The translations under genes and the position numbers were made by a program. A model generated the notes under the pieces. That model saw only the letters and a list, made by a program, of their open reading frames with translations, made no database searches and was not told where the DNA came from. This document shows, in pieces, positions 1-50,584 of a DNA stretch of 64,000 nucleotides (the stretch's first letter is position 1; every line of letters begins with the position of its first letter). Source of the stretch: Ptychomitrium polyphyllum (lineage: Eukaryota); NCBI GenBank assembly GCA_973851085.1, contig OZ316776.1, positions 10,602,001-10,666,000 of the forward strand, read 5' to 3'.

Positions 1-42
1 AGAGGACGCTGAGTTTAGTGTTCTGAGTTTCTTAAGAAGAGG

Positions 43-147
43 ATGACACTGCTTGAGCAGATGCACATCGTTTCAGGCGTACCTGTGGAGCTCTTTGCTT
101 GCAGAGAGGGACGGGCACCTGTGCGATTATTATCCCCTCTACTCTGA
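43..147 (+). CDS. Conserved-peptide upstream ORF (34 aa, MTLLEQMHIVSGVPVELFACREGRAPVRLLSPLL) in the leader of mitochondrial carrier copy 1
   Basis: ATG at 43 and TGA at 145-147. Aligns codon by codon with the ORF at 6066-6179 upstream of carrier copy 2, with many synonymous differences and a frame-preserving 6-nt indel. Confidence 0.75.
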   Translation: MTLLEQMHIVSGVPVELFACREGRAPVRLLSPLL

Positions 148-738
148 TTTTGTGAAGATACCCTTCTGTCGTTTTGTAAAATACTGTAAAGGAATTGTTG
201 ACTGCTCTACGGGGGTTTTAGACTTGGAACAGGTGAGGAAGTTTTTAATTTTGAGCCTGATTCTCTGCGACGCATCCCTGGGTGTTAGCACTGTGTATAT
301 AGTTTCTTCCGACGGAGCAGAGGGGAAGGGAGGGCTACCACCGCAGCTTCGTACCTTCGCTGTAGCGGCATTGTGTTTGCAGTCTTGTGTTTGCATGCAT
401 TGTAGCACGTACTTCTCCTGGCACGGATAGAGTGAGATGTTTTGATCTGGAAGGAGTTCACGTACCGGACACGTTATTACGGAGGTGGTATGTGAGCACG
501 ACGAAGGACAGTTAATGCGAAGCATATCAAAATTGAATAGTATTTGTATCGGCTTTTCAAGGAAAGGCTTGTTTTTTACAGCGGTGTGATTTAGGCGTAT
601 TCAGACCCTATTTAAGCGGAGTTCTGAAGTGAGTCTAGCAGTTCCCTGAGAAGTTGAGAATTAAGAGCTTTTGTTCAGCAAAGAGCAGTGGCACACAGAA
701 CGGAAAACCTTAGTAGGAAGGAAGAATCTAAAATAGGG

Positions 739-1722
739 ATGACTCTTCAACAGCAGCAGCAGCATGCTCCCGAGATACGGCTTCCTGCAGATGTGGACTG
801 GCACATGCTTGACAAATCCAAGTTCTTCGTCCTGGGAGCTGCACTTTTTTCTGGAGTCTCCGCAACGCTGTATCCGGTTGTGGTTCTCAAAACTCGGCAA
901 CAGGTTATGTCGGTGAATCAGTCCTGCACATCTCTGGGCTTGAACATTTTAAGAACACAGGGGCTTCCGGGTCTCTACAAGGGTTTCACCACCTCGCTTA
1001 TGGGGACTATCCCTGCCCGTGCGTTGTACATGTCAACTCTGGAAATTACAAAAACAAATGTAACATCATTTGCTACGAAGGTTGGAGGAATGTCTGAGCA
1101 TACGGCGGCAGCAGCGGCCAACGCCGCAGCAGGATTGACGGCCTCAGTTGCTGCCCAGCTCGTATGGACCCCGGTTGATGTAATCAGTCAGAGGCTCATG
1201 GTGCAGGGAGGACAAGGAGGTCTTGCAACGAAATATACAGGTGGCATTGATGCTTTTCGAACGATCATGAACCTAGATGGCGTGCGGGGCTTGTATCGAG
1301 GGTTTGGCATGTCTGTGCTAACATACGCTCCATCTAATGCTCTTTGGTGGGCGTCTTATTGTGTTACTCAAAGATCTATTTGGATGTCTCTTGGATACCG
1401 AGGAAAAGATGGTGAGCTCTGCGTGCCCAATTCAGCGATGCTGGTCGGCGTTCAGGGCTTCAGTGCAGCCTGTGCAGGGGGTTTCGCAGCGGTGGTAACA
1501 ACCCCATTTGATACAGTGAAAACCCGAATCCAGGTATTAGAAAATGAGGCTGGTAGGCGTGCGACTGTTGGACAGACTTTGAGAACTCTTGTGAAAGAAG
1601 GTGGTTGGAAGGCACTCTACAGGGGCCTTGGCCCACGGTGGGCGAGCATGTCCATGTCTGCCACGACCATGATTACTACTTACGAATTTCTGAAGCGCTT
1701 ATCTGCCAAACCACAAGAGTGA
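739..1722 (+). CDS. Mitochondrial substrate carrier family protein, SLC25A44-like (copy 1), intronless CDS
   Basis: Three carrier repeats with PX[D/E]XX[K/R]X[R/K]-type signatures (PVVVLKTR, PVDVISQR, PFDTVKTR) and GLY[K/R]G motifs. The N-terminal 'ADVDWHMLDKSKFF' is typical of the plant SLC25A44-like clade. First ATG at 739 (MTLQQQQQH) matches the start of the paralogue. Confidence 0.93.
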   Translation: MTLQQQQQHAPEIRLPADVDWHMLDKSKFFVLGAALFSGVSATLYPVVVLKTRQQVMSVNQSCTSLGLNILRTQGLPGLYKGFTTSLMGTIPARALYMSTLEITKTNVTSFATKVGGMSEHTAAAAANAAAGLTASVAAQLVWTPVDVISQRLMVQGGQGGLATKYTGGIDAFRTIMNLDGVRGLYRGFGMSVLTYAPSNALWWASYCVTQRSIWMSLGYRGKDGELCVPNSAMLVGVQGFSAACAGGFAAVVTTPFDTVKTRIQVLENEAGRRATVGQTLRTLVKEGGWKALYRGLGPRWASMSMSATTMITTYEFLKRLSAKPQE

Positions 1723-4700
1723 AGCAGTGACGTGAACAGGTATAGAAACCTGAATATATTGTTTGCTTCTGTTGTGTGTACTCGTGCAGAGCATTATGTG
1801 GGTTGTTGGCATGAATCTTGTGTAGATTGCTCATTTGATTTAGCAGTAAATCACTCGTACGATTTTGTAACACGTGTACATTGGAATGTCAAAATGAACG
1901 TGCTCTACTGGTTTAGTTGTTCTGCTACTGGATAGTTGAAAGATGACAAAATTGCGTTATGTAAATTTTCTTAGGGTGAAAAGCAGCTGTTCGAAGCAGA
2001 GCCCTGGAGTTAAACACATGAAACTACAGTCTCCGACCCTCTATAAGGGAGTTATCAGGGAAGTAATCTGCTAGTGCATCTGCCCGTGTTTGGGTGTATA
2101 GAAACACTTTGAAAGCCTTTTTAGAGTGATGATGAGAGATGTGTTTTAGAGCTTGCTCAAGCAGATTAGGAGTTTGATTGGCAGGACCAGATGGGTGTGG
2201 AGATGGCCAGTTGGAATCAGGCGTTTACTTTGATGGAGTGCCTGTGTGTGAGTCAGAATGCTATATATTGTATTGTAACAGGTTAGGGCAAAGGTACATC
2301 AGCATTATAAGATGTACTATGTCAACCATGGTTGTCGGACACACATGGACTACCTTCAGAGGTGGCTGGCTCTAAAGATTATCTATCTTCTGCAATGTAT
2401 ACTATTATATGGATGAGAGGTCGCTGTATATTGATATCAGAAACTGCATTCTACTGGTGGGTTGTTTTCCTCCTTGTGTTGATTGTAATGAGGATTTTCT
2501 AGTTTGTCAAGATGGTTTGCAATATTGGGATAGTTCTGTAGTCATACTTGTGTTTCATGAAAACTCTTACACAGTATGAGAGTGTGGCAGGATGTACGTG
2601 AAATAATAGTAACATAGGAAAGACATGGTCCATCTGCAGTGTCCTTGTGTAGATTAAGAGAGGACATTTTCTGAAGTGCTTTTTTGGGCATGCACCAAAC
2701 TTGAAACTGACATACCTACATAATCAGTGAGGTGGGTAGGATGGCACTCACATGGAACCTTCACTGAGAAGCAGGAGCCTCAGGAACCTGACAGAGGGAT
2801 GATGGTACATCTACATTTCTTAGAACTTGTATTTCTGCAATGGCTAGATCTTTTTCATACGGCCAAAAATCCAGGATGCCAGACCCACAAACCAACCTCA
2901 TGTTTACAAAAAAGGGTCTCCAAGATCCACATAGCCAATTTATGCAAAGGTGGAATTTGCAATACCATGGCTCCACTGGGAATGTTCTTCTGTGTGAGTC
3001 AGGTTATCCCCAGCTAGGCTGGAATGGTCTTTCTGTTGAGGTGTTCAGGAGAGTTGGACATGATGTACTGTATAGATTGATTCTCAAAATTCATTTGGTG
3101 AAAGTAGCAATTGATTGGGTGTACACAAATCCATACACTTCAAATAATAACAGCATCTCACCCTATTTTCTTTTTCTTTATTTTCTTGCACTAGTGAATA
3201 AACTATATTATGCATCTCACTTTGTTGAATTCAAACATATCATACTGTGGGTTCATGGCTCCAAGTTAGTGTGCTTCAGATGATGAATTATGACGTGATT
3301 GTAAACCATGACAGGACAAAGTTGATTATGCTTGCCATCATGTGTATAAGTACACTAATGTACTGTTTGTAACATTATAACTTCTTATACAGTGCTGTAG
3401 ACTTGAACAGTAGTTAATTCAATTTGGGGGAGTTCAAAAAATTAGAAAAATATTGCAAAAGGTGTTCGAATCTTACAAACTTTTTGTAAAATTGTTTAAA
3501 TATCATATAATTGTCCTTTCACAAGTACATGTTACTTGTTATTATTTTCAAGGCTATTTTCACTTTCAATATAATTTAGCTACAAGGCCTGATTCTAAAA
3601 CACAAGCTACACCATGCAATTTTGTATCGACCTCCCATTAACAATTAGATATGGCCTCTTGAATTTGAATCTCATTTAATTGATTGAAAAACAAAAAATC
3701 TTAGCTATTTAGTCCACTTACTACATTAGCCTATCATTTATATATATTAATATTCTAAACCTTACTAAGTTGTTATTCAAGTTGAAACTTTTGTTTACTT
3801 TTTATGTTCAAATTATGAAAATTTAATCTTTTGAGGTATTCAATTGACACAGTGGTACAAAAAGATTAGATGAAATCTAAAAGTGTGTAGTTTAATAAGA
3901 AAATAAACTATCAAAATTTCATTTGTGGTTACAATATACTCCAATTTTGGTAGTATTTTTAAAATATCTTTAAAAATTATCCAAAAAATTGTTATTTACA
4001 ACTAAATTAGAGCAAAAATGAGTTGTTTTGTTAATTCTATTTACTTGCAAAAAAAAGCTCAAATGAATGTTTATTGCATTGGAATAAACATTTATTTGTT
4101 GTCTTACATTATATTTGTAATTTTTAGGATCTTAAATAAAATTGAACATAGTAAAACATGTAAAATGGATATAATAATTTTCCATAAATTGGTTACAATT
4201 TTTTCAATGTGAAACTTTAAACAAAAATATTGTATTTTCTTTAAACATAACAATAAAATTTATAGAGAGTTGCTTCTAAAGTTCAATAAAAGTTCTATAG
4301 ATAATTTTCCAAATCAAATAAAATATCAATATAATTTTTTTACCATCTATGGCGTTTATACTTGTAATCAACATCATGAAAAAACTCTAAATAAGGAACA
4401 TTGATTTTTAATTTACAATTAGACTTCAAAGAAGGCATTTCAAAAATCAATTTTCAAACATTGTTAATGGTTGTAATAATGGTTTTATCTGTATAAATAT
4501 AATCTTCATGTTGACATTTACAACCTTGTTTAACGTTAATACATCATATTAGTAAATCATCAAATCTTTTATAATATATCTTGTAAAAACATTTAGTTTC
4601 CTACCTTCAAAAATTAAAACCTAGCATCTAATATCTACAAATTTCTAGCAAAAAGCAGAAATCGCTACATACGTCTTAAGGACTAAAAAAGTAAGGGTAA

Positions 4701-5406: not shown

Positions 5407-6065
5407 TGGTGTGGCATTGCCGCCCCACTCCTGCAGCTTCACAAGTGTCGTCTGCGTCTGCCTCGCGTCCAGCCTCGGCGTTGCATCCCTTGCACTGCGC
5501 TCCGTCGCGCTGCAACCTCAAATATCCGCCGTGGTGTCCCCCAAGCGAGGCATTTCTGTCGCTCACTCGTGCACTACTAGGTCCTCATTGCCGCCGCGCG
5601 GTGCAAGTGGTGGGAGTTGCTTGTGTGTGGGCTGCGCATTGGCTTCGACTTGGCTTTCTGTGAATGTGGCTTCCGGTGGGGAATGCAGCAAGCAGGGGGT
5701 TCTTGAGTCTGGTTGGGGTGGCTGGAGGTTATTCAGTGGTTTGGATTGAGTTTGATGTGGGGCGGGTGTTTGTTGTTGGGGTGAGTTTTGGGTCGGTGCT
5801 GGGAGAAGGTTGTGTGGGGTGGTTATGACCTATCCTACATTGTGAGGATTTGGAGAGTTTGTGGAGGTTTCTTGGGTTTTGTCCGGATCTGGTCGAGTTT
5901 TCTGTGGCTTTGTGATCCATTGTTGGATTGTGGACGTCGATTTTTTCTTAGCAGCTTTGCGTTTTAGCTTTCTTGAAACCTGCTTTTAGAAATTTTATGA
6001 TTTGAACAGGGGAATTAGGACGAGGAGGTTGCAGTAAGGAAGGAAGGTTTTGCGGCGATAAGAGA

Positions 6066-6179
6066 ATGACACTGCCGGAGCATTTGCACATTGTTGCGGG
6101 CGTGCCTGTAAAGCTGCTTGGGTATACCGAGGGTAGAGCTCCTGTGCGCTTGGGGGTTTTATCTCCTCTATCCTTATAG
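6066..6179 (+). CDS. Conserved-peptide upstream ORF (37 aa, MTLPEHLHIVAGVPVKLLGYTEGRAPVRLGVLSPLSL) in the leader of mitochondrial carrier copy 2
   Basis: ATG at 6066 and TAG at 6177-6179, just downstream of a likely leader-intron acceptor (ttttatgatttgaacag at 6009). Peptide matches 43-147 (MTL.E..HIV.GVPV.L....EGRAPVRL..LSPL). Confidence 0.75.
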   Translation: MTLPEHLHIVAGVPVKLLGYTEGRAPVRLGVLSPLSL

Positions 6180-6511: not shown

Positions 6512-7498
6512 ATGACTCTCCACCAGCAATCTCATCAGCATGCCGAAGATGTTCGGCTTCCTGCAGATGTGGACTGGAACATGCTCGACAAGTCAAAGTT
6601 TCTTGTGCTCGGTGCTGCACTTTTCTCTGGAGTGTCAGCAACGCAATATCCGGCTGTGGTGCTCAAAACCCGACAGCAAGTCATGGCTATGAACCAGTCT
6701 TGCACATCCTTGGGGTTGAGCCTTTTGAAAACACATGGGCTCCCGGGGCTCTACAAGGGTTTTACTACTTCTCTCATGGGAACCATTCCAGCTCGTGCAA
6801 TTTACATGTCAACATTGGAGTTTACCAAGTGTAACGTCAACACTCTTGCCAGAAGCGTTGGAGGCATGTCGGAGTCTGGAGCTGCAGCAGTGGCGAATGC
6901 TGCAGCTGGGTTGACAGCCTCCTTTGCAGCCCAGTTTGTGTGGACTCCTATTGATGTCGTTAGCCAGAGGCTCATGGTGCAGGGAGGCCGGGGCGGTCTT
7001 TCCACTGACTACAGAGGCGGCGTTGATGCGTTTCGGACAATCTTGAAGCAGGATGGGCCGCGAGGGTTGTACCGAGGGTTTGGCCTTTCTGTGTTCACAT
7101 GTGCCCCATCAAATGCCCTCTGGTGGGCGTCTTATTGTGTGATTCAGAGGTCTCTGTGGACGACTATCTGTAAGGAGATGAATGGAGGTGAGAATTTTGA
7201 GCCCAGTTCGGTTATGCTTGTTGGTGTCCAGGGTTTCAGCGCATCCCTTGCGAGTGGTGTTTCGGCTGTATTGACAACCCCTTTGGACACATTGAAAACC
7301 CGGCTTCAGGTTTTAAAGGATGAGAGTGGTAGGCGCCCTACTCTGAGGCAGACTCTGAATGCTCTTGTAGCTGAAGGTGGATGGATGGGTTTTTACAAAG
7401 GCATTGGTCCTCGTTGGGCTAGCATGTCCATGTCTGCGACATCCATGATCGTAACTTATGAATTCTTAAAGCGCATGTCTACCAAGCCTGAGGTGTGA
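6512..7498 (+). CDS. Mitochondrial substrate carrier family protein, SLC25A44-like (copy 2), intronless CDS
   Basis: 328-aa ORF collinear with 739-1722 (RLPADVDW.MLDKSKF, GLPGLYKGFTTSLMGTIPARA, APSNALWWASYCV, GPRWASMSMSAT). Confidence 0.93.
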   Translation: MTLHQQSHQHAEDVRLPADVDWNMLDKSKFLVLGAALFSGVSATQYPAVVLKTRQQVMAMNQSCTSLGLSLLKTHGLPGLYKGFTTSLMGTIPARAIYMSTLEFTKCNVNTLARSVGGMSESGAAAVANAAAGLTASFAAQFVWTPIDVVSQRLMVQGGRGGLSTDYRGGVDAFRTILKQDGPRGLYRGFGLSVFTCAPSNALWWASYCVIQRSLWTTICKEMNGGENFEPSSVMLVGVQGFSASLASGVSAVLTTPLDTLKTRLQVLKDESGRRPTLRQTLNALVAEGGWMGFYKGIGPRWASMSMSATSMIVTYEFLKRMSTKPEV

Positions 7499-9611
7499 TG
7501 CAGCAGTGTCGTTGTTCATTTATCATTCTCTACAAGGTACGCTTTGCTTTGTGAATCATGTCTGACTCATGTTCAGGAGTGAGTAATGTGTGAATTTTAA
7601 CTTAAGCTTTCAGCATATCCTTGGACACTCGCTGCCAAACAGGATAAGTTTTACAATCGTTTAAGAAGTGTCTCTTGAGACTGGCAATGGTGTTCTCATC
7701 CGTGAATCTGATATTAGTTGCTACTTTGTTGATTCTTCGCAGGTATGTAGCAGACTGCACTTAGAGTAGAGTCACTTAGATTAGATGCGTTCTTCAAACC
7801 CTTTTGTGCCGATTGTTATGGAGGAAAGGCGCGACAGTAGTTGAGCAGTTTTTCAATTCTTCGACGGGCTTTTCGGTGAAGTAATGGTGCTTAGGATTGT
7901 TGGGGTATCTCTTTGTTCATTCATTTGGTCGCAGCGTAATGCGTCTCTGTTAGGCAGATGTGGATGTAGATTTAGGTGTAGATATAGATGTAGGCAATGC
8001 ACACCCGCAGAGTGTTTGCTTCCGTGCAACAGATCCTTTAGATTCTTTTGTACAGTAGTTAGATGTAGGTTGAACTGCAAGAGGCAGGTTCAGCAGTTAT
8101 GCTGGTTTCTGCTGACGGGTCTTATTTTTATCCGCAACTCTGCTTGAGGTGGTTTGCCGCTGTATATTTTTCCTCTGCCATGTATAATAAACTTTATGGC
8201 CTTGACAGCAAGCGATATGACAAGCATCAGCTAATGCGATGAGAAGTTGACTTCAGTGCTTCCTGAATGTGGTCTTTCATAATCACCTCACTCAACAGTG
8301 CCTGACGTGCAATACCGATACCGGGACGACGGCAGGAGGTGACGATTCAAGACACTTAGCAATTACTGGCACCGAAAATCACCATGTCTCAAGCACGTTT
8401 ACAAAGGAGGCGAGAGAGTGAGCGACACAGCACTCCAGGGGGATTCAGCCCAAAGTTCTGAGAAGGTTCCTACCCACCAATCTGTTTACCCAGCACGCAC
8501 TTCAGCGACATTATCGAGCCACATAACAGACGTTACCTTGGTCAGCTCTACTACGAAAGCAAAATCTTGTTCCATATTCATTTGATGTTAGTATTTGGCA
8601 AACATGACCACTACATCTGGAGTCGTCAGACCTACAACCGGTAAACAACTGGTACGACATACAACTCCGTGATCGTCACCAGCTGGGTGTAGCTACTTCA
8701 AATTTTGAGATCCATAACTTTTCTTTCACCACAATCTCGTTTTTTAGCAACTAACTGTTGAAGAACTATACTGGCTTCTCCAAGAACAAGTCTCGAGAGC
8801 ACTGTAACCCCCACCTTCGACTGCTTTTGCGGTGCCGTCACAAAAAGTAGCAAAGTGCCAAGCAAAAAGATTATGACTTTCAAATGATTGATTTTATTCA
8901 ACAGTAAAATTCTATGGCAAATCTTAGAAATAAAGATTCAAGTTTAGGAACCTTTAACACGAGAATGCTCAGGCGAGCCTAAAATCTCCTGAAGTTGGGG
9001 ATTCTCTGGTCGACGTGGCGGTAGCCTATAAGCCTGCTGAATCTTTGTCTGATATGAACTAGAAGCTGGAAGCACAGGTAGGAGGGGGAAGGTGCTCCGC
9101 CGCGAAGCTCCAGATGCATTGCCCACCACTTCTTTGGCCTCCCAATCTTCGACCACAATCTCCAACTTGTACTGGGAGTAGTACAGCAGCTCTAGACCAT
9201 CAGCTAGAAATCAATCATGGTGTAGTAGCACTCGTTTCTCTACGCTTCATTGCTGTGACTGCTCGTTCAAGGAGCTGAGTGCCAGGAGCGTTCTCAAGGT
9301 ATGTCTATGTTGATCTTGCTCGCCTCGCAATGTTGGATTTTTGCTACTTTGAAATGAGAGCAGGATAGTGTTAGCATTTGTGTGATTTCGGGTGGTGTGA
9401 GGATTGGGTACATAGCTAATGCTTTTTTCTGGTTAGCAGTAGTGTAGAGGGGTAAATGATTCACCGCTTGCAGAATGTGGCGAAATTAGTTAAATTTTTC
9501 TGATGAGCTCAGTGACGTGCAGGGCGTTGAGCTTTTTGAAGATCTCCGGAGATCCTCTCTCTTTCTCTCTCTCTCTCTCGTGAGGGGTGCCACAGGGAGG
9601 GAGAGATAGAA

Positions 9612-25728: not shown

Positions 25729-28700
25729 CTAAAAATTCAGCAATGCTGAAAGACCGTTCCAACCGAACATATGAGGCCTGTCAGCATGGTTTGGGGGAGC
25801 GAAATTGAGTGCGAACATCTCCTTGGGGGCAGATCCGGGATTGATAATGCCAACAATCCTGGCTACAAGTTCAGCACTGGCTTGGATATGGCCGAGGTTG
25901 TGAGGGTCCATCCACAACTTGTAGACCAGCTGGAGCTTCCTCTGTTTTCCGTCGAGAGGAACACCCCATCGAATGAAGAGGTCTTCCCTCTCCTCATTCG
26001 TCAACCTTCGCGACATCTGCCTAGCTAGAAGTTCTCGTTCTTTTTTCAAGCTTTTAGCGCTGCACAGTACAAGTTGTTGAGATAAGGCAGTTCAGTCCAC
26101 TTGGTAACATGAGAAAGGCAAGGACATCCACAGTCGAAGAACATCATATGCTACTCCCGAGAGTCTACTGCAGTAGAAATCGAAAAGTGATTTTCGTCAA
26201 AGTGTGATCGCGAGGTTAGAAAACCAACCTGTTTGAGATGCTCGGGCTAGCAGGTATTAGATGCTCCTGGATATTCGGGCTAGCTGTGTTTACGTTGCAT
26301 TGGTTAGCTTGAGCCTCGGCGTTGAAATTCTCCTGCAGCCAGGTTAAGCGGCGCAACTCCACTTCCATGTAAATACCATCAGAAGGATCTCCCTTGAATA
26401 GAAGATAAAACTGTGTTCTATGGATGATAGAAACATTGCATGTATCCCATAACTCAAAGATAAGTGCTCTTTGTTGCTCAAATTGACACTTCCAGCTGCC
26501 TGGTGATTGCACAGGCTCCAGAGCAAGCTCATCATCATTGAGATCATCCTCTCCTTCCTCCTCTTCATCGTTCCCGCCAGCCTCCAGTTCGAGCACCTGT
26601 TAAAATTATTGACAATCAGTAAGCGACCAAAGTGAATTCTACGAGAAAAGCAACCTGCTCCTTCGATCATACATGCAACACAAACGAACAAACCATTTCT
26701 AGAGCTAATTCAAAGAGATGTAATGAAAATAATTAGCATATTGAGATTCACAGTGAGCCCATACCTGACAGACAAGAAGCTGTTTCTGATATTGAAGCTT
26801 GGCCACACGCTCCTTCAAGTCCGTTACGTACGAACGGATGCTCTTTATATTGTCCTCAGCTGCGGTCTTAAACAAGTTCTGCATTTTTCGAATGTCTACT
26901 GAATTTGACCTCTTGTGCCCACCACCAGGGCTCTCCTTTGATTGACTTGTATTAACATCAGACTTTGCTGGCGATGCACCTTGCTTTTGGTGTCCATTCC
27001 CTCGAGATGTTGCATGCTCTCCTCCATTAGGAGGATTATTGTCACGCGGTGCTCGTGGGGGTGTATTCTCGTTGTTCTCATTATTAGCATATCTCAAACT
27101 CCTCCGCGTGGCAGGGGAGCACGGAGTATCGGCTGTGAGGCGCTGCCTAGCCATGCCTGCAGGGGTTAAGGGAACATTCTTCTTGCGAGCAGGAGTCCTG
27201 GGTGACTCTCCAGTCTGATCCTGAAACAACATAGATTATGACACGTCCATTTCAGTGGTCAAATCAATACATGAAACATAAAATGTCTTGCGAGCTGTGA
27301 CTTGAGGCCACTTCAATTGCATCTATAATCGCAGAAGTTCTTTAGGGAATGGGTGTTTTTTGAGAATGAGCAGTAAATGAAGAAGCCAACAAACTACTGC
27401 ATCGTCACAATACAAAGCTGTGCTACATGCTCTTTTACTTTTCACTATCTTGAGTTGAAGAGCAAAACGTACCTTTGGTGAGTTTGTTTCGTTGGCAAGA
27501 ATCATCTTGTCTAGGGATCTCTGAACACTCTCCAACTGCTCCTCCAAAGTTGCTATGGCCGCATCGGCGTCAGTTTTATCCTTTTCTCCCAATCTAGAGA
27601 GCTCTTGACGCAATGTTACATGGTTCATACTGATGGACTGGCGAAGAGTGGCTACATCTTCCTTGTTCTCTGAGCCCTTGAATTTTGAAGTTGTAGAACG
27701 AAGGCTGTGCATTGTATGTATCTCATCTTGCAGCTTCTTGACTGTAGAAGCAGCGTCATGATTCATGCCCGCTTGAGCTAACCTTAAACATTCGACTTCC
27801 TTCTGAAGAGCTTCAAGAGCTCGATTGGCATCCTCGCCCAACTCATCCTGGAGGTTTTCAAGCTTGCGAATCTCCTGTACCAGCATGACGGATGCAGCAG
27901 TGGATTGCCTGATGGACATGCTTGGTCCTTTCGGCCGGATCGTGCTAGGGGGAGTTTGCGGTTGCTGGTTTTGACCCTCCAATTTTCGGATGAGATAATC
28001 CCCTGAATCAGACCACCTTCTTCGGTTCGTGCTAATTGAGAGAGGAGTACGGGAGATAGGTTCCGGCCCAGGTGTTGATGGCTATTATGCACACCACGTG
28101 AACATTAGAAGGGTGGAACAGAAGATAGGTACAGTAGATCAGAAACAAGTAAGCACTTCACAGCTACTTCAATACTCAGTGGTTTAAAATGTAACCGGGG
28201 TCTTACAGGTCTCTTTGCAGCCTCGTCCGCAAGTCTCTTTGCTGCCTCTTCTGCTAATCTTTTAGCGGCTTCTTCTGCCTCAAGTTTCCTGCTGACCTCG
28301 TCAAGCCGAGCTTGTGCAGCATCACGCTGTACTTGGAGCTCCCTAAGTTCTTCCTCCATCTATGAAACTTCCAGGCTCAGTAATTTTCCTTAGCAAGGCA
28401 ACTTCTTTAATGATTTAAAGAACACTTCTCTACTACTCGAACCAGGACAGTATAAACGTACAAACCTTTTGAATCTGGAGGTCTTTAGCTTGGAGTAGTG
28501 CTTCCGATGACGCGGCTTCAGTTCCTAAATCGGGAACTTTCAGCTCAGCCTCCAGTCGGGCCACCTCTTTCTGTAATTGCCTCACCAGTACCTTGTCTGA
28601 CACAACCTGACAGAGTACAGCAAAACTCCAACAATTTTGGAGCAGGGACCCAACATGAGGAACTGATCAATTCAAGCATATGTTGATTAATTTACTAATA

Positions 28701-31700
28701 CATTGAAAGCCAGAGATGGAATTGCAGAACAACCGAAACGCAGTGAAAGTTGGTAAGTTAATTCTGAAACCGAAACGTACATAGCGAATGCAACAGATTG
28801 GAATATGACTGCCGAGGGACCTTACCATGTTGATATGGGTGGTGTTCGTTACTTCCTTCGCCCTGGTAGCAAATGCAAGAGTGTTACGCGATTGCTCGAC
28901 ATGGCTATGGGCAGGGCTCATGGTGCAAATGATAGCAGTTCTTGCATTTCCTCCCAAAGAATGTTGTAAGATCCTTGTAAGCTTGGAGTCTCTGTATGGT
29001 ACATGTCCGTTTTTCTTGCTTCCTCCACTGAAAGCCAAATACATGAGTTCGACAACGAGTTATTAAGGACAGGACTAAGCAAGTACTGGCAATGGATTCT
29101 GGATAAAAATTTGAAATCATGTAAAATGTCGGTACCTAAGTTTGCGAATACAAGTGCTTAGAGTCAATAGACTGCGATTAATATGGGCTCCTTCCTTCAG
29201 CCTGGCGCCATCAGCTTGAGTTTGTGATGCTCGTTCACTTCCAGCCAGATCCACAAAATTCTGCGAAATAAACATGGCAGATGTTAGAACAGAGGGCTTG
29301 GTGAGTTACTGTTGAATATGCATGGATAAGATAATGATGCGCGTCTACACTACGGCATTGAAACCCATCCGGGAGGCAATCTGTAGTTCCAAACGAAGTG
29401 ATAGACAAGTCATTTACCAAACTCGCCACTAGAGAGGTTGCTGGAGTCCCTGGAGCAACTCCAGAAGGATGGCTCTCCACAGTCTGCACAGGCAAGAGGT
29501 ATGCTTATATCAACTGACTATATTCGTAAATACGGAATGCCAACTGACTGTATCCAAGTTCACAAAACACCATTACACTAGCAGCTGCAGATCAGACAAC
29601 CCCTGATTACCAACAAGTTGCCTAAAGCGGAGCAATATGAGAATCATTAGTTCATTTGTACTAGTAAACCAGAACTCACCAATCGAATGATCTGATGTGA
29701 CCTTGAGGATGTGTCATTTAGACTGGTCTCTCCGACTTGTCTTTGAGCTGCAGGAATACAAGGATAATCAGTGTAAAGTGAGTTGTGTATGAGCGCTATA
29801 TGTTACAATACAACTTCCGTCCTGTTCACATGGACTCGAAACAAATTCTACAGTGGCAGAAATATTTGTAGAGCTGAGCTCTTCGTACCTTCGCAAATCT
29901 TAACAACCTGCCGCAGATGTTCTACATTACGGACAACCTCCTCTTTCAACTTGTCCACAACAGTACCTTTCTGCGAATCAGAACAGTTCAATTAGAGGCA
30001 AATACATCGCCCTGGTCACAACAGGTAGAAGAATTGCAACGAAGAGTACGGAAGTACCCAGTAGAAGTATCCAAGAGAACCTCAGGTAAAATGAAACTAA
30101 ATGCCTCCCTACTTACCTCTTTGTCGTCAAGCAACCTAAGAGGTGCGTTATCAGAGGTAAGTAGATCTTTCACCACCTCGTTGTAAATTTCAAGTGCTGC
30201 TACTTTCAGTATAAATTCTCTGTCTGTGTTCTGTGACAAAGAGGAGAATCAGCCCATATGCACGAGGAATTCATCACCACTGAGCAAGTCTAAGTGTTCG
30301 TGAAACTCACATTCCACTGTTGTATGTGACAACCCTGGAGTGTGCTGATATAATTAAGGTGTCCAATCAGTATACAAAGCTGGACCAGGCAACACATGTA
30401 GAGGGAAGCGAAGCTCTAAAATCCCAAAATATGTCGAAGGGACGGAGTGTACAAACTATTCAACATAATTCGGAAATCCATTCTCATGCGATAATACAAA
30501 TTTCATGCAAGCAAACTGTAATGAAAGCAAGCCGACTCCACAAATACGCAAGAATGGAAGACCTACATGTTGGATGTACTCAAAAATATCTGCAATGGCG
30601 CTTTCAGTGACTCCCCTCATTGTGAAAGTCTTCCCACTGCTGGTTTGCCCATATGCAAAGATCGTAGCTGCTCGACCCAAATCAAGTCAGAACAATCACT
30701 TCAGAATGAACATGGAGGGTGCTAGAATCGCTATAGGAACAACCTGGTTCATTACACTTGCACTGTTACCATAAAACGTTTTCAGGTCATGGATGAAAGT
30801 CTTACAATTGAGACCCGTAAGGGCCGAGAGGGCCACGTCTTTGGCACCTTCTTCATAAACCCTCTGTGTTTGGCATTCAGGCCCGAATACACGATCTGCA
30901 AACAGCAGCTTAAACGTCAAATTCTATTCACCAACCTTTTTGCGACAAGACATCTCAGAATCTAATTACTCAGATTCCGAATGTGGCCAGGTCTCAGGGC
31001 GTCCTCTAGGAGCTAAATTGCACAAAAGATAGATCTCAAGCGCATATATTCTCCCGGCAACTCGTGCTAAACAAGCACTTCCCCTCAGCCACTTCATGGA
31101 TCCCATTCTACAACGTCTATAATGGTCATCTAGAGGCCTAGTTGTAGGACCTTCAATAACATGACTCAATTGAGCTTCGGTTCAATCTCTAACCAAAAGA
31201 GATACATACTAAGCAGGATCGTTGTGAGCAAACAAGTTGAATACTGCACAGAATAGGTATAAATTCTGGAAGTTCATAAAGGCGAGTAGGTATCCATCAG
31301 AGCAAACTCTTCAATCCGAAAGTAATACCCAAGTATCTAACTTCCATACCCAAAGGAGACTGGAGTTTCCTACTAAGTAGGAAGATAAACGAACTGACAC
31401 CAACTCTCAAATCACAAAACTTGAAGAAAGTAATGTCCAAACGTACGGGAGACTCAAATTGAAAAATAACAGAGAGTGAAAATCACCTAGCGTATACGTA
31501 GCAGGAAATGGCGAACGTTCCGGTAGTGCATGTTTGTACGCTATCGTATTCTCATTGCTGCACACCCAGTCTGAAACGTCGGAGCGAGCCACCTCCTTCG
31601 TACTAAGAGGCCGAACTCGCACCGTGACATAGATCTTTTCCTCCCCGCTCCTAATCCGAGCAAATTGCGCCCCGCCACTCCTCTCCATGGCCACAGTCAT
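25729..31700 (-). CDS. NACK: Kinesin-7, NACK1/HINKEL-like (N-terminal motor, coiled-coil stalk, C-terminal DUF3490), multi-exon
   Basis: '[10 protein letters not shown]', P-loop '[10 protein letters not shown]', switch I 'NDTSSRSH' (about 29700), switch II 'DLAGSE' (about 29240), '[23 protein letters not shown]', '[37 protein letters not shown]', '[32 protein letters not shown]', 'KEMFALNF'. Confidence 0.92.
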
Positions 31701-35029: not shown

Positions 35030-38000
35030 ATGGCGGGCTATGGCGATGGCTATGATGCCACCTTCCGGGACCTGGAGCTTCTCATGGATCGCAACGTCCA
35101 CCGCGCCTTCGCTGGATCTTCATTGCATGCGCCGGTGGCTTCTTCTTCTCTGGCGAATTGTGCTACATTCGGGGAAGAGCGCGTCGTGTTGGAAGGCGAG
35201 GACGCCCGCGAGGACCACGACGATGTAGCAGGTGTGGTTTCTTTTTATGTTTTTTCTATGGAATGATTGGCGTGCGTTGAGGATTGTTTTTCGTATTGCA
35301 GAGGTTTGGAGCGCTGTGAGCTTTGGGAGTTTTGTTGTTGAGAAGAGGTGATGTGTGTGTGAGGAGCGCTTGAGCGGTCGTTGGCGTGGTTGATGTTTTT
35401 GTTCTGTTGGATTGTTACGGGTTTGCGTACTTTCTATTTCGTTGGCATTGCCGAGATCTTTTGAGGCTTTGTTCGTGGTTTTGTCCTAGATTTTGATCTT
35501 CTTTTGCGATGTTTTGCCTTGTAGAGGGAGTTTTAGCTTGCTAGAGTGGTGTTTAGTTTTCTTTAGCGATAAAGTGAAACTAGAAATGCTTTATTCGTGC
35601 TGAAGCTGGATGTTAATCAGTTTATTGTCTACCGGTATTGTGCATAAAGGAGCTTGTGGTTATTATGATACAGAAAAATTCTTACATATTTTGTCAACTG
35701 ACCGTTTTCTTAGTTATGCACATGAGCAGAGCAGCTTCCAATTTGTGAGGCTATAGTTCTAGCAAATTTTAGATAATAATGATGCGATTCCGTTGTCGTG
35801 TAAGGATTACATTGTGAACGTTTTATGAGGATTCAGTTTCACGTGGAGAACTACACTCCTGAGTCGTGAATGAGGATATGAGCTGGAAGCTGTCATGAGG
35901 TTTCGTACAGATGGCAGTGGCGTAATGTTTTGGTATTTGAATTGTGGAAATATTTCCTTAACAGAGTGTCCACTTATCTGTTGTAATTCCGGAAACAAGG
36001 ATTAGACTCGTAACCAGTTTGCATGTCTCATTTTCTTTTTAGTGTCATAGTTCAATGATGTCACTAATTCGAGCAATGGCTCTTCCTCATTTCTTAAACC
36101 GTAGCTGGAACTCACGATATTTTCAAATTGTACTTTTCATCTGGCCTTGCTTTGCAACCATTGTATACCTCACCTGTTTAGTAGCATTTGTTCATATTTT
36201 GCAAGCTTATTGCCGCTGCCTTTTTCTAACAATTTCTGAGGATTGTGACTGTAAACCTTGCTGCAGCGACTCTTGGCAATCCGCTATTTAAAGCTGCTTC
36301 CATCTCCCTTGCTCTTAACTCCGTATTCACTTCTGGCCTCGTTCTGACAAAGAACAATGGATTGACACAAGCGTCACAACACAGTGGATATGGTCCAGCC
36401 ATTTCAGGAGCAGCTCCTTCTCAAAAGAAGAGCTATAGCCCAGTGCCTTTGATGGCTTCTTCAAAGGTTCAGGTTAGTGAATTTAAATCCCAAAGTTGGA
36501 AGAAGGCTTATGTCCGGATTGTTGATTTCTTCTGGAATGTATCTGTTTTTATGCAATCAACCAAGGCTATATTGAGACTTGGGACTCGTTCGACACAGGT
36601 GGCTCTTGATATTCCTGTAGCAACTCCAGTCACCGTTTCAAAGAGATCAGCAAATTATGTGTCAGCTTTTCCAGAGTATGAAAGACTTCAGGGCCCTGAC
36701 TTGAAGGATCCTGCAAATGCCGCTGGTTTACGTAGGGCTTCAATAGTGTGGTTTAGGAATGACTTGCGAGTGCATGATAATGAAGCTCTGGTTTCAGCTA
36801 GTAGAGATTGTCTCTCTATTTTACCAGTATTCTGCTTCGATCCAAGAGACTATGGAAAATCATCTTTGGGTTTCGATAAAACCGGTCCTTATCGAGCAAA
36901 ATTTCTTCTGGAATGTATCTCGAACCTGCGATCAAGTTTGAGGAACAGAGGCTCTGATCTGATTGTCAGGATTGGGAAGCCAGAAGAAGTGCTTGTCGAC
37001 TTGGCAACGAGTGTGGGAGCCGAAGCTCTCTATGTCCATCAGGAAGTCACTTACGAAGAGCTTCAGGTACAGTAGTTTCGTTCTCAAGGACCATGAAAGC
37101 TGTGGAATGTGAAGGCGTGGGAGGTCTTGTGAGGACAGAGTTGAGTATTATTCAAGTAGCTCGCTGTCGGCTGGTTATTCAGCTGTAACTAGATGTGACG
37201 AGTTGGTAGGAAATGATGGTTGCTTTTATTGCAGGAAGGAGATTTTGTTGCAATTTCTAGCAACTCGTACAGACCTTGGTTGTCACATAAGGGTGTCGCT
37301 GTTAAAAGATCATGGAATGTCCTAAACAGAGGACCTTTCCAGGTTTGGGAATTAATCATTCTCCATTATTGTGTGCATGTGGCCCAAGTGTAGAAGGGGT
37401 GACACCTCATTACCTGGAAGTTCCCTACTTTGTGCTAGATCTCTGTAAAGTTTCATGCTTCGAGTGTAAGTTGGAGGATGCTTAAAGCACAGTTTGTAAA
37501 AGTTATCGGTGGCATTGAAGCCTTACTTTTAAAAAAATAGCATGGCAGTGCTGTTCAACCATGTAAATAATGTAGGGATTAACTTGATATCCACGTCAAT
37601 ATCATAAGAACTGGGATTGTACTTGAACTTTGTGTTAAACTCGGAGATGTTTTCAAGGCTGGGTAGGCTGGTTGCATTAGTCTAGGTGGCAGCGCTTAAC
37701 GCAGATAGTCTCTATTTGGACATCTTTCTTTGTGACTTGAGGAAGACGGGTTAAATACGAGGTATACATAATTTTGCAAAGTATGACCAGCGATCTCTTG
37801 CACATGGGAGGAGACAAAACTGAACCCTGTGGAGCCGTCAACTGGATATAGGTCATTGGCCTGTAGTCAATTACGCTATGATCATTTACAGCAACGATAT
37901 CGAGCGTTTTTCCTATGATGCATGCATTTTGGTTTATGGCTTATGTTAAAAGTGTGTTGTCTGTTCAGGCAGAGGAGAAAGTGGCCGCTGCTTTGCAAGA

Positions 38001-41640: not shown

Positions 41641-44600
41641 TCACATGCTCTTGTTCTGTACCACTTGGTTGATTTTATCCGCCAGGTCATCCCAATTGAT
41701 AGGCTTTGTTAAATAGCCCGTTAGACCCATTGCCACAAGACTCTCCTTTCCCTGAGTCAAAACATCAGCAGTCAAGGCGAAGATTGGAATATCACCCACC
41801 CTACCTCCCAACGCACGAATTGCTTTGGTAGCAGTAAGACCATCCATAACAGGCATTTGGAGATCCATTAGAACCATGTCATACTGGCCAGCTTGGATCT
41901 TGTCCACTGCCAGCTGCCCATTAACCACCAACTCAACCTGCATACACAAAATAGACATGAGGGATAAATTAAGATGAATTGAATTAAAGAGAGGCGGTTC
42001 TATCCTGTGTGCAAAAACATTATAGAGCACTCTTTTCAGGCTCCTTATGAAAAAATATCCAAGATGTCGTTTGAGTACAATTTTAGATTCAAGCACATAC
42101 AGAATGAAAGGCACCGTATGTCATAATCTAGGAAATGGAAGAAGTTGGCAAATGGGCACATCTGAAACAACTTGTACTTATGTTTTTATGGCAACAATAA
42201 TAATTCACTTCTTTAAAGCAGCAGGGTACTCTAACTATTTAATAATAACATATCATGGATACAAGTCACTGCTAGTCAACATCATGCAACCAACTAATTG
42301 ACCATAAACATGCTGATCAATCACATAATTAAATTTCAACAGGGCAAGGTTTACGATACCTCATGGCCATAATGCTTGAGCATTTTCCTGATAAGAAGCT
42401 GGTTCACCTTGTTATCTTCAGCAACCAAAACTCGAAGAGTTCTTCCTTTGGTCTTCAATTGTGCTTCTTTCTTATGCTCTTCAGGTGAAGGGATAAGATC
42501 CAACTCTGTACAAGGATTAAATGCTGGTCTTAGTGGCACACAAAATACAAATGTACTTCCTATCCCAGTTTCACTTTCAACCCAGATCCTCCCTCCCATA
42601 GCTTCCACTACCCCTTTGCAGATAGCAAGCCCCAAACCCGTTCCCCCAAACTTCCTTGTAGTGCTACTGTCCGCTTGAGAGAAAGACTGAAACAGTCGCC
42701 CTTGCTGCTCCTTTGTAAGCCCTATTCCCGTGTCTGTAACTCGAACTTCAAACCACGCGGGTAATTCTAAAAACGTTTCTTCTAATTCTTGTTCGTTCTC
42801 CATATTTACAGAGCCTTCGCCATCCTCTCCCATTGTGTCTAAATGGTACTCAAAATCTGCAGAATCGTGTCTTCTATCTATCAGAACATTGGAAGGTTGG
42901 TCCTGGGCTCGTATAGCTAGCTTCCCTAAAACCGTGTCAGGTTCTTTAGAACGTCGTGAAGACTCAGATTGCACGCTCTGCACCTTGTCATCTTCTACAG
43001 GAACCTGCAAATCCTCCAGATTTCAATATCAAAATTGTAGACCAGGAAGAACAAGCATTTATATTTATTCAAAGGCTTCAAAGAAGGTCTGACCTTAATA
43101 TTATAAGATAACAACCAGCCGTTTTATTATTCAATCTCTAATTTGTTAAATTAATCTTCATTTAAAACTTGGAGGAAACATGAAGTGATTTTATATTATC
43201 TCAGACTATTACGCACCTCGTTAGTGAGAACACAGCTATTATCTGCCATATCTGCACCCTCCAAGCCTGGTGGTCGATTAATTTCATCTACACGGGTCCA
43301 TGTAATAGTTATACCGCCGCGCTCGGTAAACTTGATGGCATTGCTGAGCAAGTTTGTGAGTACCTGGGAGCAAATAAGGCATACCACCATCAATGATGCT
43401 GAAACCAACTTCCGACTACACAGAATAACAGAACTTTAGTCTTGTTACGGAAAAGAAGCTTGTCATCAAATTTACCAAGATTAAAACTTAATAATAAATA
43501 TTGCATACCTGCCGGAGTCGATTAGGATCGCCTCTCACTACCATCTCGTCTGCAGGTGGCTTAGATACTATGAGTCGTAACTTCTTCTCTTGTAATTTCC
43601 CTTGAAACAAGGCCTTTACCTGTCACATCAGCCACACCAAGGAGTCTGAAAACCTTGACATTAAACACATGTCTACAGGGAATACGCAGGTATAATCAAT
43701 TATATACGTAAAGAATCAAATTCAATCTATTCCAGAGAACTTATGATCTCACCTGGTCAAGAAGCTCTCCAATGTGGAAGTCTACTATCTCTAGAGCCAT
43801 TTGACCTGACTGGATTTTGGAGAAATCAAGGATTTCATTCAAAACTTGCATAAGACTCTCAGCAGATACTTGCATGACCTTGACATAGGCCCCTTGTTCA
43901 GGGGTCAGAGATGTCAATAGGAGTAGGTCTAGCATTCCCAGTACACCTGTGGACAAGGGAAACAATGATCCTTTTAGCAGACGAATGATACCTGGAAATA
44001 GTTTAAATTATTTGAATTAATGAGGTTCTCACAGCTGCAAATTTACAATACAATCTAAGAATGTTGGCGAGAATTATTACCAGTCATTGGAGTCCGAAGC
44101 TCATGGCTCATCATAGCTAGAAACTGTGACTTGGCAACATTAGCTTGCTCAATTGCATCATGGGCATCCTTCTCAGTGGTTACATCATCAAATAGCCATA
44201 CACGGCCAAGGGTTGACATAGAGGTAATGGGGTATGACCGCACTTTTAAGACACTTCGCGGGTCCTTGAGCTCCCATGTCCACTCATGACACTGATCCGG
44301 GTGATTTACCAAGGAGTTGAAACACCTGTCAACACAATAGTTAATGAAGATTAGAATAGGAAAACTTTGTGCAACAAGATCAATTTTAGCCGTGTAGCAG
44401 CAATTTGAATCTGGTACTGAAAATAGTGAAAGAGATTACCGGTACGTGCTGCCTCGGTCTTTGCACCGATCAGCCAGTCTTCTAATACCACCTGCTACTT
44501 GCACTGGATCTACTTCACCTGCATTCAGTAGACCCAGTACCTTGGCTGCTGCTTCGTTGACCAGGCAGGGTGCCCTCTTATCGTCCACAAATACCACTGC

Positions 44601-46994: not shown

Positions 46995-48088
46995 TCAAAT
47001 GCATATGTCGCAGACGATGTGACGTCTCAAGGCCGGAATAACAACATCCGGCGCACTGAGCTGAGGCAAATGACCCTCTGCTTGCAGTATCTCCACAATT
47101 GTCGGACCCCCGAGAGAATGATGCAGGTACGCTGAAACGACGACAGGGACTGCCAGATCCTTGGTGCTTTGGAGAATATGGCAAGGGACTTGAACCTGAG
47201 ATAACCCCAATTGTGGTCAAAATGTGAACGCTGAGTGATAAGCATTCACTACAAAAATAAATGCAAAATATGCAAGAATTTGCAAGACCTAACCTTTCCA
47301 GATTAGAGTCAGTTACGAGCAATGCATGGAGGGGCAGGAAGGACCTGATGTAAAATACTGCGCAAATCACTTGTGAAAATGGTCTTGGCGACACTGAAGG
47401 CAATGTCTGGACGAATATTGAAAAGAGTTCTGCTAAATTCCTGAACTGCCATTGAGTCTATGTCCGCTCCAAGTGCGAGAGGTGCAAAACCCGATACCCA
47501 TGCCTTGAAATTGGATTGCATAGCATGGAACAGTTGGTTGAGATCCTCCTCATTCAGGCCCCCAAGATAATCAACGGTGTTGAGATACCTGCACAAGAAA
47601 AATCCTCTAATGATATAAACTCACACTGTTACAATCCTTATTCCTGCACACCCTCAACTCTCCCTAAGCCAGTACATAGATAAAGATTAGTGGAGATTAA
47701 TATCACATTACCTCGGAGAAGATGAGATCAGAACAATCTTGGAAAAGATGTGCGGCCGTTCAATCGAGGCTAAGCAGCCAATCATACCAGCAACCGAATG
47801 CCCAACGTAAATACACGAATCAATCTCCAGCTCATCTAGAATTGCAAGCAAGTCATCAACGTAACCATACAAGTTGGAGTATCGCGACGCACTAAAATAA
47901 TCTGGGTCCGTGGTGCCAGCGCCCATGCTGTCGAAGACAACGACCTTGAAGTCTTTGAGAAAGTGGGGTACGACATACTTCCAAACGGACTGATCGGTAC
48001 CAAAGCCATGGCCGAACACAACAACCTCCTTCCCATGTCCCTGTACCGTCACATTGTGAACCTCAAGAATTGTAGGAATCTGAGACAT
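46995..48088 (-). CDS. KAI2L: KAI2/D14-family (RsbQ-like) alpha/beta hydrolase, copy A. Exons 48088-47712, 47588-47345, 47195-46995
   Basis: '[10 protein letters not shown]', nucleophile 'GHSVAG', 'SSPRY', 'FAPLALGAD...[17 protein letters not shown]', catalytic Asp 'KDLAVP' and His 'EGHLPQLS'. Introns are GT-AG and in frame; stop TGA at 46997-46995. Confidence 0.93.
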
Positions 48089-50584
48089 GGATCCCGAAGC
48101 CTTGATGAGCAGCCCTAATCTCCACAATTCGCATTAAACGCGCCCTTCCTCCCAACGCTCTAAAAGGTACGCGCAGCAAATACACCTGCGCCCCTACAAA
48201 CATACTCTGTTTAGAACCATAGCCAGAGTCAGTGAAACTAATCAACTCCAACGATTCTCAAACTCTATGGAGCCTCTAAGATGCTCAGTAAAAGTTTGAG
48301 AGCGGCAAGATCTTCCGGGAAGGTGTACCCGGTCACTTGGGTCGTGCCAAACCACCTTCAAAGATTCTAGAGAAACGGCACCGAAGGTTCACCGTCTAGA
48401 TATTCTACAGTGAAGCCCAAATGCAATACATATTGCAGAGTTACTGTGGATAGAATCTTCGCAGGACGAGATGCTTCTCGCGGCTTGTGTGCCGGTCAAA
48501 GGTGCGATTCCCAAGGTGAACCAAATCAACCCTAATTCAAAACAGATTGGAAACTTTCAAAGCACTACACAACTAGTCTCGGAATTCCCACGCAGTAGAT
48601 TGAGAGAAGTACTCGAATCTACTACACCTTGTCGACGACTCTGAAGACTCGCAAGAGCTAAATTCACAACTCAGCGTGATAACGGTCCCCAGCAGCACTC
48701 TAAATGGGAAATCCAACATCCCAGCTTACCAGGCCTCCAACTTGAAGCTACTTCCGTCACAACCACGCAAACCTCGACAGCCAACCGAAGAGACAAACTG
48801 CTACGCGAACTCTGTGAGATGAAGAGCGCGCACTCTCACTTCGTCATCCACAACGCGAACTCACTCACACTGCGACCACTACTCGAAAGATATACTAGAG
48901 GAAAATCAAATAACAAAGAAAAATTTAACCAAAAGAAAAGATAAACCTTTTGCTCCGGTAAAACACACATCCCGAGAAGTCTCGGAAACTCACACTTGGG
49001 CGTGAATCTCGCCCCCTGATCCAAGCCTTCCAAGGACGAGCTCCCGACCCATCCACCTCAGAGGTCCATTCCCAATCACAGCCACAGCTCTCCGCAGCGC
49101 TGGCGCCACATCAACGACTCAACTCAGATCATCACAGAAACTTACCACCCTCTCCTCTCCCTTCACCAAAACGCAAAACTTTGAACTAAGTTCACATCAA
49201 TCAACACCAAGCTTAAATCTGGACACTCACCATTAGTCCCGGTTTTGATCACATATCAAAACAATCATCATCAACATCCTGCACTTAGTAACCTCAGAGC
49301 CATGCAACTTCCAAGCAAGCCCGTCTGATCCTGATCTTTCAGCTAAAGGTGGCGCCTTTGGGGTTGTTTGGACCAGAAAACGAAAGGCGGTAGTTTTAAT
49401 TATTGCGTTGGAGAGAGTCAACTGCTGGGAAGACAATTATGGAATCATGGAACCATGCGATCGGCAAGGCGAGTGAGTGACTGAGTTTAGCGGTTGAACT
49501 TTCGAAGCGGATCAGCGGCTGCATTACTGAAATGCTTGGATTGGTTGCTATAGTAATCGGTAAAGGACTTCTGACGACAGTGGGTCATCGATGGATGAAT
49601 TGCTACCTGATCACAATAATGACGATGACTACACTCCGCAGACTCCCACTAGAACTCTGAAAACGAGTTCATCCTCTCAACTTCTTCCGAGGCCGGACTC
49701 AACAGCGTCGTTCAAGTGTGCCCCACATTCCCTTGGTAAGTGGAGCTTGGGAAGAAAGCGGCAGTAAACTTCGAGTTATGCTTCTTTCCTTATTCCTTTG
49801 CCATAAAACAATGAAAGTCCTCCGCACTGACGAGTCCTTGCGACACCTGCTGCACTACAATCATGCCCGGGACGTCGAGTCAATGTTAAATGCTTTGGTT
49901 GCTTCCACTGCTCTGGCATTCTTTCTTTTGCAGAAGGGACTGTAGCATCCCCTTCACTGGTAATGAGACCAAGAGTTGGGCTCAAGCGCACAGATGGGAC
50001 GATTGTAAATGGGGTACATTTCACAAAAGAAGGGAGTTTTAAGTGGGGGTGGGTGAAAGTTTGAGTGCAAATCTAGATAAGAGGATTATGGTTCATAGTG
50101 AAGAGAATAAGCAAATCTTAATATCTGTGAACACCAAGTGTTTCAAAAACATGAACATGGATAGAAAAATTAGAATCCTAAAAGTTGTTGGATCTTTACA
50201 TTTTATTTTTTTAAATGATGTATTTGATAGGTTCAAGTAATTTTGATATCAAAGTAGGCTTGTATTCTTTGGATATGAATAACCTCTTGGAGCAGTAAGA
50301 AATAAGTCTTTTGAAGTTATGGAAAGCACTATCCACACTTACCATGCAAAATTTCAAACAATTTTTAATTCATAAGAAGTTACTTAGGTTGCAGTTCATA
50401 TTTTGCTTGATGTATATAAAACTAAGGAGTATCAATGTTTTCTAGCAATAAAAGCTCTCCATTCCTTTGGATTTCATTAAACCTAAATGTATTAGGCCTT
50501 AAGACTAAATTGCCCTACTATATAATCACATTAACAATAATAACATAACATTCTTCAACAAAAGCAATTAGTTAGCTTACTAGT

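Follow-up and report, generated by a model that had tools for sequence, protein, structure and literature searches.

More than 150 groups of upstream open reading frames that encode a conserved peptide (CPuORFs) are known. Those that sense metabolites (S1-bZIP/sucrose, AdoMetDC/polyamine, GGP/ascorbate) share with the moss element described here a conserved uORF ahead of a metabolic gene; however, stalling in the S1-bZIP and AdoMetDC uORFs occurs at a conserved stop codon or close to it, whereas the stop of the moss uORF floats. In the plant CPuORFs that arrest elongation the arrest has been shown, while in the moss uORF, which has no sequence match to them, we infer it; the moss peptide is of a size that fits the exit tunnel, as theirs are. 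A conserved internal block with a non-conserved stop, as in the moss, is described in the available parts of two reports, for the uORFs of AT4G36990 and AT5G53590 (PMC5587730) and for the AtHB1-type CPuORFs, in which the RHK stall of AtHB1/ZmHB115 occurs at the internal conserved motif (PMC13578316). In the accessible text of the first of these, two of three arrest uORFs stall in elongation, and 19 of 22 conserved uORFs gave little or no sequence-dependent arrest in vitro, a count that weighs against arrest by the moss peptide (PMC5587730). A CPuORF is also described for a carrier gene of the family studied here: HG48 of AT1G72820, of class II and with a published range restricted to eudicots (tables of PMC7106846, PMC6380273 and PMC9305500). 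HG48 resembles the moss uORF in its SLC25A44-like host, its length (22-36 aa in the loci analysed), its conserved middle and free tail, and its distance from the main frame, the HG48 stop lying 215-435 nt before the main AUG.

Mammalian SLC25A44 transports branched-chain amino acids. For peanut AdSLC25A44, the portion of the report that was available gives small effects on the transport of p-coumaric acid, cinnamic acid and 4-aminobenzoic acid; there, LWW (LWW206) was mutated as the signature of the family (PMC8199184). The moss carriers resemble the peanut protein in having PF00153 with three repeats and LWW in both copies.

Two carrier genes and their leaders

The window, that is, the whole stretch of DNA analysed (64,000 nt of Ptychomitrium polyphyllum, contig OZ316776.1), holds two paralogous carrier genes, each preceded by a uORF.

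739..1722, + strand: SLC25A44-like mitochondrial carrier, copy 1 (327 aa in a single open frame, PF00153)
6512..7498, + strand: SLC25A44-like mitochondrial carrier, copy 2 (328 aa, PF00153; long-branch paralogue clade)
43..147, + strand: uORF 1, of carrier copy 1 (34 aa; A at -3 of the AUG)
109..129, + strand: GRAPVRL core of uORF 1 (codons 23-29; likely arrest motif)
6066..6179, + strand: uORF 2, belonging to carrier copy 2 (37 aa, with the core at 6132-6152; retains a G-[IV]-[LV]-S tail that is likely ancestral)

Coordinates and peptides agree with the initial annotation, which had placed both uORFs 5' of paralogous carriers, and the SLC25A44-like identity given there is upheld by PF00153, by close relatives named SLC25A44 and by the LWW of both copies. 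Each uORF runs from AUG to stop wholly 5' of its main frame (43-147 ahead of 739, 6066-6179 ahead of 6512). A purine stands at -3 of the uORF AUG in both window copies and in nearly all classes of sequence, and uORF 1 has a second in-frame AUG at 61. Additional uAUGs occur 3' of the uORF, four in leader 1 and three in leader 2, and these complicate a model based on one uORF.

The two peptides are identical in 25 columns, and a tBLASTn search with the peptide against the window and the best 80 of 88 carrier loci gave an E-value of 1.2e-9. When the leaders were compared with each other by blastn, the uORF stretch was the sole match between the copies (92 nt, 74%), in agreement with the claim that the flanking leaders have diverged; nine of the ten synonymous codon pairs that had been named lie within codons 1-29, and the tenth (TCC/TCT) is present in the sequence. 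Pfam contains no family for either uORF peptide (E up to 1). Window positions 25-165 show 0 differences from contig X22, which may itself be the window's source.

That the uORF is exonic, for which an RNA check had been proposed, is supported in relatives only, where uORF and carrier lie on one RNA-type contig. A 2,353-nt contig of the relative X1 (of RNA type by guess) covers 41-463, 628-1736 and 2002-2384 with the 3' UTR intron spliced out, and a second X1 record joins uORF 2 and the start of carrier 2, so that in these relatives each uORF shares a mature transcript with its carrier. In poly(A) runs of two relatives (X2, X3) uORF 1 is covered on separate short contigs. An RNA run of the window's own organism was looked for and none was found. 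Three introns were placed:

1740..1974, + strand: 3' UTR intron of copy 1 (17 nt past the stop, GT..AG; joints in X1, X2 and X3, boundaries from the window)
7537..7742, + strand: 3' UTR intron of copy 2 (38 nt past the stop; joints in X1, X3 and X4)
5607..6009, + strand: probable intron in the leader of copy 2 (good acceptor AG at 6008-6009; donor position uncertain)

The coding region of both carriers is intron-free, yet each has a 3' UTR intron less than 50 nt past its stop. The leader intron of copy 2 is suggested by a loose end in X4 before 6022, which by eye resembles 5590-5606 joined to 6010. Leader 1 has a donor-like CAG/GTGAGG at 230-238, past the uORF stop and altered in X1 and X2, which may mark a leader intron 3' of the uORF stop in the window organism only; an intron from 233 found no support from the contigs, which show presence and not absence.

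The best named relatives of the carriers are proteins of Ceratodon and Physcomitrium. A tree of 56 proteins puts the two copies in different clades, both starred: copy 1 falls with Ceratodon M758_2G099000 and a Physcomitrium protein, and copy 2 is joined by Ceratodon M758_2G098800 and a different Physcomitrium protein. The Sphagnum carriers form four classes of their own. Since both clades hold Ceratodon and Physcomitrium members, the duplication predates the split of those two mosses; the near-adjacent Ceratodon identifiers suggest an old tandem arrangement as well. The branch of copy 2 is long (0.32), and in the first carrier motif this copy has TQYPAVVLKTR versus TLYPVVVLKTR; it may have a different cargo.

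The neighbouring genes of the window are ordinary moss genes, with exons that match a kinesin (28670-29059, - strand), a DNA photolyase (36230-37075, + strand), a histidine kinase/receiver protein (41641-43022, - strand) and two alpha/beta hydrolase domains (47708-48133 and 59477-59890, both - strand), the last two perhaps another duplicated pair.

Selection on the peptide and its range in mosses

Selection on the peptide had been claimed and a Ka/Ks estimate proposed to check it. Over codons 1-29 the two window copies differ at 5, 4 and 15 sites in codon positions 1, 2 and 3, respectively, and in the uORF frame dS is 1.41 and dN 0.17, with a dN/dS of 0.12 (NG86; Fisher p 2e-4 for the comparison), the same ratio as for the carriers (dS 1.34, dN 0.163). 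In the shifted frames the ratio rises to 2.6 (+1) and 2.1 (+2). One reverse-strand frame is also low (0.28), as expected because its third positions coincide with those of the uORF. Against the moss locus L001 the uORF ratios are 0.40 and 0.34, and the shifted forward frames across comparisons range from 1.0 to 4.1. The core is without replacement change in all 21 pairs among seven classes (the window's two included), while each pair differs by 2-6 synonymous changes and the carrier is close to saturation at its synonymous sites; the variable core columns are distributed 1/0/6 over the three codon positions. By these substitution patterns the uORF peptide is shown to be under purifying selection in mosses.

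The conservation proposed for two paralogues was found to be wider, reaching Sphagnum. A scan by carrier alignment yielded 88 confirmed loci, of which the best 80 were used; 25 of these are from mosses by tree and identity (L001 and 24 of Sphagnum type). Among these best 80, the GRAPVRL core lies 5' of the carrier in 24 of the 25 moss loci, 195-640 nt before the carrier match, and the single locus that lacks it (L013) has a leader of only 86 nt. The 24 core-bearing loci are not 24 independent events: as extracted, they comprise 11 distinct DNA sequences (13 with the window's two) in 5 classes. Each of the four paralogue classes of Sphagnum retains a uORF of its own, as does each of the two window copies. 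GRAPVR has no further occurrence in the 862,962 translated residues of the loci and the window. The first AUG of the uORF stands 22, 24 or 26 codons before the core and is kept in 22 of the 24 loci, the other two (L018, L019) having GUG at that site and an in-frame AUG six codons on; differences in length before the core are whole codons (0, +2, +4).

Protein searches contributed further uORF peptides, namely P0182 (of copy-2 type, with F for the last L), P0183, P0190 and P0188. Within the copy-1 lineage, identity over the first 29 residues is 28 in P0183, 26 in P0190 and 23-24 in P0184/P0188, whereas in Sphagnum the first two thirds of the peptide are largely replaced. The core described as an invariant EGRAPVRL is therefore invariant as GRAPVR[L/F], since the E is V in Sphagnum and the last L can be F. 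The confident matches of the protein searches are these uORFs or upstream-extended readings of them, and no stand-alone or longer homologue was found. In a library-wide HMM search three of four matches were the uORF and the fourth, the repetitive protein P0185, has an EGRAP by chance; P0191 and P0195-P0197 (E 5-9) were likewise set aside as chance matches.

The motif is absent from the 55 non-moss loci among the best 80 of 88, 39 of which have more than 700 nt upstream; this set includes three conifer-clade loci with only 341-801 nt of leader, and no liverwort, hornwort, lycophyte or fern leaders. Literature searches, with subscription papers outside their scope, gave no match for the strings GRAPVRL, EGRAPVR or VGRAPVR, and topic searches found no published description of a moss CPuORF on an SLC25A44-like gene. 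The strings GRAPV, RAPVR, APVRL, CRVGR and CREGR have no match in the ESUCA catalogue (8 supplements) or in 27 of the 28 supplements of a P. patens sORF study whose tables may not print peptides (PMC6724668); the gene identifiers looked for in PMC4330380 gave no match. The uORFs are a genuine CPuORF family of mosses, apparently undescribed.

The end of the peptide behaves differently from the core.

130..147, + strand: LSPLL tail of uORF 1, ending in the stop (frame peculiar to Ptychomitrium polyphyllum, with one base fewer than relatives at 128/129)

Runs of seven relatives (X1-X4, X6, X8, X9) have an extra base at 128/129 compared with the window, seen as an insertion in X1, X2 and X4 and as a loose end in X3, X6, X8 and X9. 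Their tails, read by eye, are ILPSTLV-stop (X6), ILPSSLGL-stop (X8) and IILSTLVL-stop (X9), and P0183 ends in IYPFKLIL. In all sequences the stop floats 3-9 codons past the core, and a tail start of G-[IV]-[LV] is common to copy 2, P0182, P0190 and L001 and is likely ancestral. Read against these relatives, the LSPLL tail of the window is a local frame change that matches copy 2 by happenstance. An in-frame indel of 6 nt and a shared LSPL tail had been offered as evidence of peptide conservation; as the relatives carry the extra base and read another tail, these features are no evidence for it. Class I CPuORFs are conserved to a fixed stop; the moss uORF has a tail of 3-9 residues whose frame changed in the copy-1 lineage.

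Probable elongation arrest in cis and its alternatives

Taking the evidence together, we think it probable that this family, extending from Sphagnum to the window organism, acts through a GRAPVRL core that stalls its own ribosome and represses the carrier in cis. Scanning ribosomes would mostly start at the uORF AUG, with its purine at -3; the motif x-R-[EV]-G-R-A-P-V-R-[LF] would pause elongation at or just past the core; and, once paused, the ribosome would keep others from scanning on to the start of the carrier, 200-600 nt downstream. A short invariant block within a peptide of 34-38 residues, followed by a free tail, agrees with arrest in elongation at or just past that block. A stop that floats between 3 and 9 codons past the core and a tail that changes frame make arrest at the stop codon less likely. 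Termination at the uORF, 5' of the 3' UTR intron, could in addition expose the mRNA to nonsense-mediated decay (NMD), 3' UTR junctions being triggers of NMD in moss according to the accessible part of PMC6009662; the introns lie 17 and 38 nt past the carrier stops, within the limit of the 50-nt rule, and normal termination would thus escape NMD. The presence of an own uORF in every paralogue is expected of a cis element. The pause might respond to a small molecule, most plausibly the cargo of the carrier or a related metabolite, although this is the least supported step and can be put forward only tentatively, with the balance against it. The copy-1 lineage retains 26-28 of the first 29 residues, more than a short arrest motif needs, and this goes against the arrest reading.

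Conservation at the nucleotide level in the copy-1 lineage has to be weighed separately.

30..129, + strand: nucleotide-conserved stretch in copy-1 orthologues, synonymous sites included (cause unexplained)

In this stretch three copy-1 orthologues (X6, X8, X9) have one difference each in 100, 100 and 89 nt, with several just outside; for comparison, the X1 carrier differs from the window by 77 in 1,109 nt. Copy 1 and L001 use different codons for the same residue in 3 of 21 cases in the uORF and in 138 of 262 cases in the carrier (p 0.001), and 0 of 324 carrier windows are as low in synonymous difference as the uORF. At the DNA level, GTG-CGA in the core hardly varies. The peptide hence does not account for all of the conservation, and it could be argued that the main constraint acts on the RNA, as a protein-binding site, a splicing element near the leader-intron acceptor or codon-level timing, with the frame secondary. 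A TTTCAG/G at 71-77 resembles an alternative acceptor whose use would remove both uAUGs; all contigs there run through 77 unspliced, and the acceptor was set aside for want of support, contigs showing presence and not absence. The deep comparisons speak against the RNA as the main target, since the changes in them are found at third codon positions (1/0/6 in the core) and the two window copies show no synonymous deficit (9 of 19 same-residue codons differ in the uORF, 111 of 222 in the carrier). Neither a conserved fold nor an Rfam family was found: z-scores were -1.1 to +1.6 in seven sequences, the consensus energy of an 11-row alignment (-5.4 kcal/mol) did not go beyond shuffles, and Rfam gave no match near either uORF, with two weak miRNA matches far off. 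A constraint mainly on RNA is consequently judged unlikely; it is probably an extra layer in one lineage and not the whole story.

A free micropeptide made from a bicistronic mRNA and acting in trans, for example on the carrier or another mitochondrial protein, would account for a copy-1 lineage in which codons 1-29 are conserved more strongly than the carrier (28, 26 and 23-24 of 29) and for tails that are hydrophobic in all frames seen. It fits poorly with the replacement of the first two thirds of the peptide in Sphagnum, with the uORF copy of every paralogue and with the lack of a stand-alone or longer homologue in the protein searches, and we hold it improbable. Most uORFs act independently of their sequence, and an ordinary uORF that dampens the carrier by being translated, its peptide match a relic of duplication, would agree with the fairly strong start context and the free tail and stop. 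The age of the duplication (Physcomitrium and Ceratodon in both clades, carrier dS 1.34), the rest of the leaders having no blastn match between copies and a core unchanged to Sphagnum make this very unlikely. A further reading makes the frame a coding exon that, by splicing or by being read through, extends the carrier at its N-terminus; the donor-like site at 230-238 could be related to this. It has a negligible chance: that site lies past the uORF stop, its sequence is changed in X1 and X2, an in-frame stop precedes the carrier in 24 of 24 loci, the frame from uORF to carrier takes all three values, and GRAPV occurs in 0 of the 168 carrier-like proteins fetched, so that the uORF is not a fused part of the carrier protein.

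HG48, the upstream GUG and the cargo of the carrier

The initial annotation had mentioned an angiosperm CPuORF on this carrier clade as a possible homologue; it exists, as HG48, but has no similarity to the moss peptide. HG48 was detected in 22 of the best 80 of 88 loci, with the exact AT1G72820 peptide in L030, a locus retrieved with the moss carrier alignment and included in the same tree, so that the host gene is an AT1G72820-type carrier in both cases. The HG48 motif DP...RSK[TI]W[FL][HR][KR]RKK is unlike GRAPVRL (hhalign probability 0.03%, E 0.96), RSK[TI]W[FL]xxRKK does not occur in the moss uORF, and neither profile detects the loci of the other group. A common origin of the two is unsupported, short peptides of this kind being able, in principle, to diverge past recognition.

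In three grass-type loci (L062, L064, L078) a stretch of the form FKDPK..SSFSRPWF, without a nearby AUG, lies about 270 nt 5' of the carrier; it is loosely like DP...SKTWF, obtained no score from the HG48 profile and is possibly a non-AUG or diverged uORF.

A second conserved feature of the leaders lies close to the carrier start.

688..690, + strand: conserved in-frame GUG, followed by GC, 17 codons before the AUG of carrier 1 (candidate non-AUG start)

An in-frame GUG occurs 18-40 codons upstream in 24 of 24 moss loci with enough leader (from among L001-L023, L073 and L076, of the best 80 of 88), and length changes between GUG and AUG in mosses are whole codons. In many eudicot loci a GUG-G stands three codons upstream (AAAGTGGCKAAGATG; e.g., L030, L031, L036, L041), and the upstream GUG is absent from copy 2 and from the three conifer-clade loci. 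This pattern suggests that the conserved GUG may be the non-AUG start of a longer carrier isoform, a start for which nothing was found in the literature searched. HG48 is not an other-frame reading of the region around 688, since it ends 215-435 nt upstream and the eudicot GUG stands 9 nt upstream.

A broader proposal is that two arrest peptides without relation to each other, GRAPVRL and HG48, arose independently in mosses and eudicots on one orphan SLC25A44-like carrier, that each responds to how much of its cargo is present, and that in mosses the uORF additionally adjusts the ratio of the AUG isoform to the longer GUG isoform. We regard this as doubtful in its entirety; if it were true, a uORF reporter would be a sensor that names the physiological substrate of the carrier.

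This kind of element is well known, and for the specialist the moss family is useful rather than startling. The CPuORF catalogues consulted start from angiosperm genomes, which a moss-confined family would escape, and the family is directly testable in Physcomitrium by gene targeting. A different conserved peptide on the same carrier family in eudicots suggests repeated selection for its translational control and, should either peptide prove to be a metabolite sensor, a simple reporter could help to identify the cargo of plant SLC25A44.
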